NCBI RefSeq assembly: GCF_003334315.1
Contig: NZ_QOWR01000096.1
Direction: 5' to 3' (one strand)
Source of the DNA: Escherichia coli
Lineage (GTDB): Bacteria; Pseudomonadota; Gammaproteobacteria; Enterobacterales; Enterobacteriaceae
DNA length: 5,353 bases
Numbering within the stretch: position 1 is the first letter of the stretch; every line of letters starts with the position of its first letter. The position numbers and the translations under genes were made by a program. Shown one piece after another: positions 2,467-2,638 of the stretch. The notes below the pieces were generated by a model, which was not told where the DNA came from, made no database searches, and worked only from the letters and a program-made list of their open reading frames with translations.

Positions 2467-2492
2467 AAAAAACCCCCGCTTTGCAGCGAGGG
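2467..2492 (-). terminator. Rho-independent terminator of the tRNA-Ala transcription unit
   Basis: Minus strand reads CCCTCGCT-GCAA-AGCGGGGG followed by TTTTTTG: an 8-bp GC-rich stem (one G-U pair), 4-nt loop and 6-T tract, starting 9 nt after the tRNA 3' CCA. Confidence 0.75.
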
Positions 2493-2501
2493 TTGGAAAT
2501 T

Positions 2502-2577
2502 TGGTGGAGCTAAGCGGGATCGAACCGCTGACCTCTTGCATGCCATGCAAGCGCTCTCCCAGCTGAGCTATAGCCCC
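2502..2577 (-). tRNA. alaW: tRNA-Ala (anticodon GGC), 76 nt with encoded CCA
   Basis: Reverse complement of 2502-2577 is GGGGCTATAGCTCAGCTGGGAGAGCGCTTGCATGGCATGCAAGAGGTCAGCGGTTCGATCCCGCTTAGCTCCACCA. It has the G3:U70 Ala identity pair in the acceptor stem, anticodon loop AUGGCAU (anticodon GGC), a GGTTCGATCC T-arm and a 3' CCA. It matches the alaW/alaX tRNA sequence as I remember it; which of the two names applies cannot be decided because only one copy is present. Confidence 0.97.
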
Positions 2578-2609
2578 GTCACGTAAAGCTTGTCGAGTTG
2601 ACGGGCGGC

Positions 2610-2638
2610 ATCATATGAATTCCGCCCGAATGTGTCAA
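2610..2638 (-). promoter_or_regulatory. Promoter of the tRNA-Ala gene (-35 TTGACA, 17-nt spacer, -10 TATGAT, GC-rich discriminator)
   Basis: Minus strand reads TTGACA (plus 2633-2638), CATTCGGGCGGAATTCA, TATGAT (plus 2610-2615), then GCCGCCC. This is a consensus -35 with a 5/6 -10 and the GC-rich discriminator typical of stringently controlled stable-RNA promoters. The predicted start is roughly 20-25 nt upstream of the mature tRNA 5' end. Confidence 0.6.

Follow-up and report, generated by a model that had tools for sequence, protein, structure and literature searches.

A single tRNA-Ala(GGC) gene at the alaWX locus of an Escherichia coli contig: loss of one tandem repeat unit or assembly collapse

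Introduction

In Escherichia coli K-12 the tRNA-Ala(GGC), which does most of the decoding of GCC and GCU, is encoded by two identical genes, alaW and alaX, standing in tandem in one operon. In the DNA analysed here (5,353 nucleotides of E. coli sequence, the whole of which is called the window), one such gene is found at the corresponding position, and the question arises whether the second one has been lost, was never there, has moved elsewhere or has been left out by the assembler. The preliminary description of this DNA, made from its letters, offered natural copy-number variation, a recombinational collapse of the tandem repeat or an assembly collapse as explanations. Many tRNA genes are reported to differ by plus or minus one copy from one E. 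coli strain to another, and tandem tRNA arrays to vary in length (PMC4539685). The one-copy alaWX of the window is either another case of such ordinary, previously described variation or an artefact of assembly.

Methods

Copy number was determined in a set of 5,426 complete E. coli genomes. The one-copy state was recognized with a 151-nt query comprising 35 nt of the leader, the tRNA and 40 nt of the trailer, which reaches 80% cover or more at one place only where a single gene separates leader and trailer, and the state of three or more copies with its mirror, a spacer-tRNA-spacer query. The 111-nt and 151-nt queries separate the states, since the matching pieces overlap over most of their length and are not joined; queries of 551 nt, 2,612 nt and 5,353 nt are unusable, since overlapping pieces are joined and two-copy genomes rank first at 100% cover. 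The one-copy genomes whose loci were fetched were ECCTRSRTH03, TUM2820, 300490, EH08-18-36, EDL933, MC1061, BL21(RP), EC556, and EC581.

Results

The window comprises two tRNA genes, tRNA-Ala(GGC) and tRNA-Val(UAC), both found by ARAGORN and confirmed by Rfam (Table 1), and ARAGORN detects no further tRNA in the window between tRNA-Ala(GGC) and pdeA, in agreement with the preliminary description. The tRNA-Ala(GGC) attains 63 bits with RF00005, whose gathering score is 29 (Rfam), and its 76 nt are 100% identical to K-12 alaW and alaX (an exact string match, present twice in MG1655). Its 3' CCA and its G3:U70 pair, the latter being the identity pair for alanyl-tRNA synthetase, are read directly from the sequence. 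With a cloverleaf above the threshold, G3:U70, and CCA, the gene is predicted to code for a functional tRNA-Ala.

The promoter scan gave 11 of 12 consensus matches, on the minus strand and in the place where the preliminary description had put the promoter (2610-2638), and the promoter sequence is identical to the MG1655 stretch upstream of alaW. The TATGAT hexamer is followed by a G+C-rich stretch, GCCGCCCG, also read directly from the sequence, which, from what is generally known of stable-RNA promoters, may act as a stringent-control discriminator. The intrinsic terminator is identical to the K-12 sequence downstream of alaX. In the terminator scan its stem (2494..2471) has 10 pairs, 6 of them G-C, and is followed by TTTTTGTCTCT; the fold of -17.2 kcal/mol (z = -3.7) was not matched in stability by any of 200 shuffled sequences. 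The preliminary description had recognized the same terminator, but its coordinates, 2467-2492, were a few bases off. As in K-12, the tRNA-Ala(GGC) operon thus appears to be equipped with its own promoter and intrinsic terminator.

The longest open reading frame at pdeA (104-2410, minus strand, 768 aa, GTG start) reaches 117 nt beyond the annotated start of the gene (729 aa, 104-2293). The extension is probably a mere in-frame upstream GTG with no intervening stop.

Table 1. Features of the window and their coordinates
Feature	Position	Strand	Basis or remarks
pdeA (yfeA), downstream of the tRNA operon	104..2293	minus	coordinates taken over from the annotated MG1655 and E. coli C loci; sequence identical
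Intrinsic terminator	2461..2494	minus	10-pair stem and 4-nt loop (2494..2471), then T-rich tail
81-nt repeat core	2497..2577	minus	tRNA plus AATTT; perfect repeat in two-copy genomes
Single tRNA-Ala(GGC) gene, 76 nt	2502-2577	minus	ARAGORN; Rfam RF00005; encoded CCA, G3:U70
Leader, -10 hexamer to mature tRNA 5' end	2578..2609	minus	same sequence as the leader of alaW in K-12
Predicted sigma-70 promoter upstream of the tRNA-Ala(GGC) gene; in K-12, that of alaW	2638..2610	minus	TTGACA-17-TATGAT
yfeC, divergent from the tRNA operon	2798..3157	plus	ORF list; RefSeq annotation of E. coli C
yfeD	3159-3551		
gltX	3603-5018	minus	
tRNA-Val(UAC), 76 nt	5277-5352	plus	ARAGORN, Rfam

Two copies of the tRNA-Ala(GGC) gene, 115 bp apart, are present in MG1655, W3110, E. 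coli C, and EC416 (NZ_AP027404.1); the K-12 tandem pair, which the preliminary description had named, is indeed annotated in MG1655 as alaX and alaW. Along the direction of transcription the K-12 order is promoter, leader, alaW, a 39-nt spacer, alaX, and terminator, and the window shares promoter, leader and terminator with K-12 and has a single gene in between. Positions 61-2577 and 2502-5352 of the window each occur unchanged in MG1655, W3110, and E. coli C, where exactly 115 extra bases lie between the two blocks. The missing 115-bp unit corresponds to the 76-nt gene and the 39-nt spacer and has left no scar at the junction, which has the leader-tRNA-trailer form ...CTTTACGTGAC-tRNA-AATTTCCAACCCTCGC.... 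The 39-nt K-12 inter-gene spacer was not found in the window by a search allowing 3 mismatches; the unique spacer segment of the two-copy locus is 34 nt long (TGCACCCAGCAAACTTGGTACGTAAACGCATCGT). In place of two identical tandem genes 115 bp apart, the window has one gene, no spacer and 115 bases fewer.

The two MG1655 copies share an 81-nt perfect direct repeat, the tRNA followed by AATTT, with a period of 115 bp. The deficit of the window equals one period, and the sequence on either side of it occurs unaltered in MG1655, W3110, E. coli C, and EC416. Compared with E. coli C, the window shows no difference (0 SNPs) other than the 115-bp unit and the last base, which the alignment left out. 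EC416, the closest complete genome found, matches positions 1-2577 and 2502-5353 exactly, the last base included, and at least 60 other complete genomes carrying two copies match the whole window at 100.0% (as printed). The alignment to MG1655 and other E. coli strains that the preliminary description had proposed thus finds the window exactly one unit short between identical flanks, and its reservation that the reference of this lineage might itself have a single gene does not apply, since E. coli C and EC416, with identical flanks, have two. By sequence and position, the locus is to be regarded as a one-copy allele of the E. coli alaW-alaX (alaWX) operon. W3110 had been considered as a one-copy K-12 reference, as a table in PMC4678842 gives only alaW for it; the W3110 record has two copies.

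Both ends of the window lie within repeats. An IS186/IS421 element ends within the window, occupying positions 1-75, with its 23-bp terminal inverted repeat, CAACCCTTAAGTTAGCGCTTATG, at 53-75; from position 1 on, 78-79 nt of the window recur in the three IS186 copies of K-12. The element adjoins pdeA as in E. coli C and EC416, in the orientation opposite to that of IS186C of MG1655, while several other strains have no IS there and nupC is directly adjacent. At the other end, the window extends one base past the 76-nt tRNA-Val, and its last 77 nt (5277-5353) are within a repeat. The last base, 5353, is 'c' versus 'a' after valU in K-12, and fits a junction of the valU upstream region with the valX trailer that is present in 133 of the 5,426 genomes, those of the BW25113 lineage among them; EC416 has exactly this junction. 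The Val arrays of this type that were checked comprise from 2 to 4 genes (3 in WCHEC050613, 4 in EC416), and a single one in BL21(RP), where the array is apparently rearranged. It was considered whether the Val array of the window had also collapsed, which would imply a systematic assembly collapse; as the same junction occurs in 133 complete genomes, EC416 included, it is uninformative on this point.

The census found one copy of the alaWX unit in 137 of the 5,426 complete genomes (2.5%; 151-nt query) and three or more in 51 (about 0.9%; spacer-tRNA-spacer query), at least one of the latter being a joined-piece artefact; by subtraction, about 5,240 (about 96.5%) have two. Contraction and expansion alleles hence coexist at this locus. 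Three copies spaced 115 and 115 bp were verified in Z1834, and among the listed strains of a laboratory type like that of BL21(RP) three Ala copies are also found in BL21(DE3), Rosetta2-DE3, BL21-RIPL, and XL10-Gold.

The one-copy genomes are scattered over unrelated strains among the matches listed. EDL933 has one copy in three independent assemblies, as do ATCC 43894 and strain 277, and the others listed comprise Xuzhou21 and other O157:H7 strains, MC1061 and OV2, both entered as laboratory strains, KO11FL, TUM2820, clonal isolates from pigs, and several pig ETEC genomes. EC556 and EC581 have one copy each and the same IS200 insertion in both. Within O157:H7 alone there are genomes with one, two, and three copies; Sakai carries both alaW and alaX (PMC4678842). 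A single copy is present in MC1061, a K-12 derivative matching K-12 at the locus, against two in MG1655 and W3110. The presence of all three states in O157:H7 and the sharing of the allele within clones indicate that it arises repeatedly and is inherited: the one-copy allele is a real, heritable and recurrent natural polymorphism. The three-gene valUXY array is normal in all five one-copy genomes checked, so the loss is specific to the Ala locus.

Some of these genomes differ in their surroundings. In the O157:H7 strains and in EC556 and EC581, an IS200/IS605 tnpA remnant and a TnpB (InsQ) gene, absent from the window, are situated between gltX and yfeD, and IS200C copies flank pdeA on both sides in EC556 and EC581. 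In BL21(RP) (NZ_CP084683.1, positions 1-1720), which has one Ala copy, a single tRNA-Val is followed directly by yahG and fdrA and not by the rest of the Val-Lys array; either the tRNA array has been rearranged or the stretch is misassembled.

Discussion

A deficit of exactly one repeat unit with unchanged flanks is what repeat misalignment would produce, or, equally, what would be left by an assembler skipping a loop. The first of these readings, a real deletion in this very sequence by repeat-mediated loss of one unit, is the one that we mildly favour. The 81-nt repeat is a good substrate for slippage or unequal exchange. Misalignment of the 81-nt repeats in an ancestral two-gene alaW-alaX operon would remove one 115-bp unit precisely, the crossover or slippage point falling somewhere inside the core and leaving no scar, and the promoter, the leader, one intact gene and the terminator would end up joined. 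This could happen by replication slippage, recA-independent sister-strand exchange or unequal homologous exchange, with three copies as the reciprocal product; the presence of three-copy alleles fits a process working both ways. At the molecular level, slippage during replication or an exchange between sister strands, in either case across the 81-nt repeats, is the likely mechanism.

Assembly collapse would mean that the source has two copies and that a de Bruijn assembler walked through the 81-nt repeat, the loop through the spacer being skipped. The two ends of the window, one in the IS186/IS421 end and the other one base past tRNA-Val, both lie about 77 nt inside repeats, which is the manner in which de Bruijn graph contigs end at k = 77, and points to the window being an entire contig of a k = 77 short-read assembly. 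In the graph of such an assembly the Ala repeat core, at 81 nt longer than k, would loop. Collapse would also agree with the two copies in EC416, which is base-for-base identical to the window on both sides of the locus, and in the at least 60 genomes matching it at 100.0%; among the matches listed, all the complete genomes with identical flanks are two-copy. Against it stands the certain existence of the one-copy allele in nature, seen in complete, often long-read, assemblies and inherited within clones, and the contig is unbroken at the Ala repeat although it is broken at the Val repeat. Moreover, an 81-nt repeat is short enough to be bridged by reads of about 150 nt, loops with two copies are as a rule resolved by present-day assemblers, and the k = 77 origin of the window is itself something we infer from its ends. 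Taken by itself, collapse is a serious contender that we judge somewhat more doubtful than probable. As 2.5% of complete genomes naturally have one copy, an artefact would be about as likely as a deletion even if only a few percent of short-read assemblies collapsed here; because of this frequency and a presumably small collapse rate the two explanations are given similar weight for this sequence, deletion being held just probable and collapse just short of that. The three explanations named in the preliminary description thus keep their place: the window is one 115-bp unit short, and the one-copy state does occur in nature, in 137 of 5,426 complete genomes.

It is very improbable that the single gene is ancestral and the K-12 pair a lineage-specific duplication, a view for which the bare single copy speaks and nothing beyond it, since two copies are found in about 96.5% of the genomes, in matches spanning 97-100% identity to the query, and also in the genomes identical to the window over 5.3 kb, while the one-copy genomes are scattered among unrelated strains; the within-species census fixes the direction of change as from two copies to one. 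Just as improbable is that a rearrangement or a mobile element carried the second tRNA-Ala(GGC) gene to another place in the genome, as the IS186/IS421 element flanking the window and the rearranged Val array in the BL21(RP) assembly might suggest: the missing segment is exactly one repeat unit and the flanks are unchanged, the signature of repeat misalignment and not of transposition, and in 59 of the 60 one-copy genomes listed the tRNA-plus-flank query matches once across the entire record.

If the loss of one unit is real in this sequence, the remaining gene, intact and with a normal promoter and terminator, should still provide tRNA-Ala(GGC), probably at a lower level. Full deletion of alaWX is tolerated by E. 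coli, with growth impaired in M9 glucose at 37 C and 530 transcripts changed; the UGC alanine tRNAs are not up-regulated and do not compensate (PMC11480407). Since the deletion is detrimental in minimal glucose, halved dosage could carry a small, condition-dependent cost, and such an effect of a half dose is probable; the presence of the one-copy allele in EDL933 and MC1061, widely used as reference and laboratory strains, indicates that any cost is mild. The point made in the preliminary description, that tRNA gene dosage affects GCC/GCU decoding capacity, is reasonable, though the effect is probably small. There is no mention of alaW or alaX in the eLife 2023 paper on translational redundancy. 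That alaWX is a fast-changing dosage locus, with alleles of one, two, and three copies that recur even inside O157:H7 and are selected on GCC/GCU decoding capacity, seems unlikely; if it were so, certain niches, or passage in the laboratory, would favour a single copy, as opposed to its being neutral noise or an artefact. Short-read assemblies can miscount tandem tRNA arrays, and the tRNA gene counts of draft genomes should not be over-read.

Among known systems, the closest one is the alaWX unit of K-12 MG1655 (b2397, b2396). It has the same position (pdeA, tRNA-Ala, yfeC-yfeD-gltX-valU) and an identical promoter, leader, tRNA and terminator, and differs in having two genes versus one in the window, which is devoid of the 39-nt spacer and one 76-nt gene. 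The public one-copy alleles (EDL933 CP008957.1, Xuzhou21, MC1061, KO11FL, TUM2820, and EC556/EC581, among others) share with the window a leader-tRNA-terminator junction identical over 151 nt in the 60 genomes listed and, where the locus was fetched in full, the gene order, in all but BL21(RP). Unlike the window, the genomes fetched lack the IS186/IS421 element or have it in the K-12 orientation, and those in which the stretch includes the Val array have the K-12-type base after valU, again except for BL21(RP).

The neighbouring valU-valX-valY-lysV array is copy-variable like alaWX, and differs in encoding another tRNA and in the length of its repeat, 76 nt versus the 81-nt core of alaWX; a few percent of E. 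coli genomes have one unit more or one unit fewer in tandem arrays such as alaWX and valUXY. The glyV-Y genes form three or four tandem copies in E. coli (PMC4539685).

More generally, alaWX resembles short tandem repeats of E. coli that contract and expand by repeat-mediated events, with a perfect 81-nt direct repeat, the loss of exactly one unit, and alleles that are contracted in 137 genomes and expanded in 51. According to Lovett and co-workers, close repeats of such size reportedly delete without RecA, by replication slippage and recA-independent sister-strand exchange. By likeness to that work, the same mechanism may operate at alaWX.
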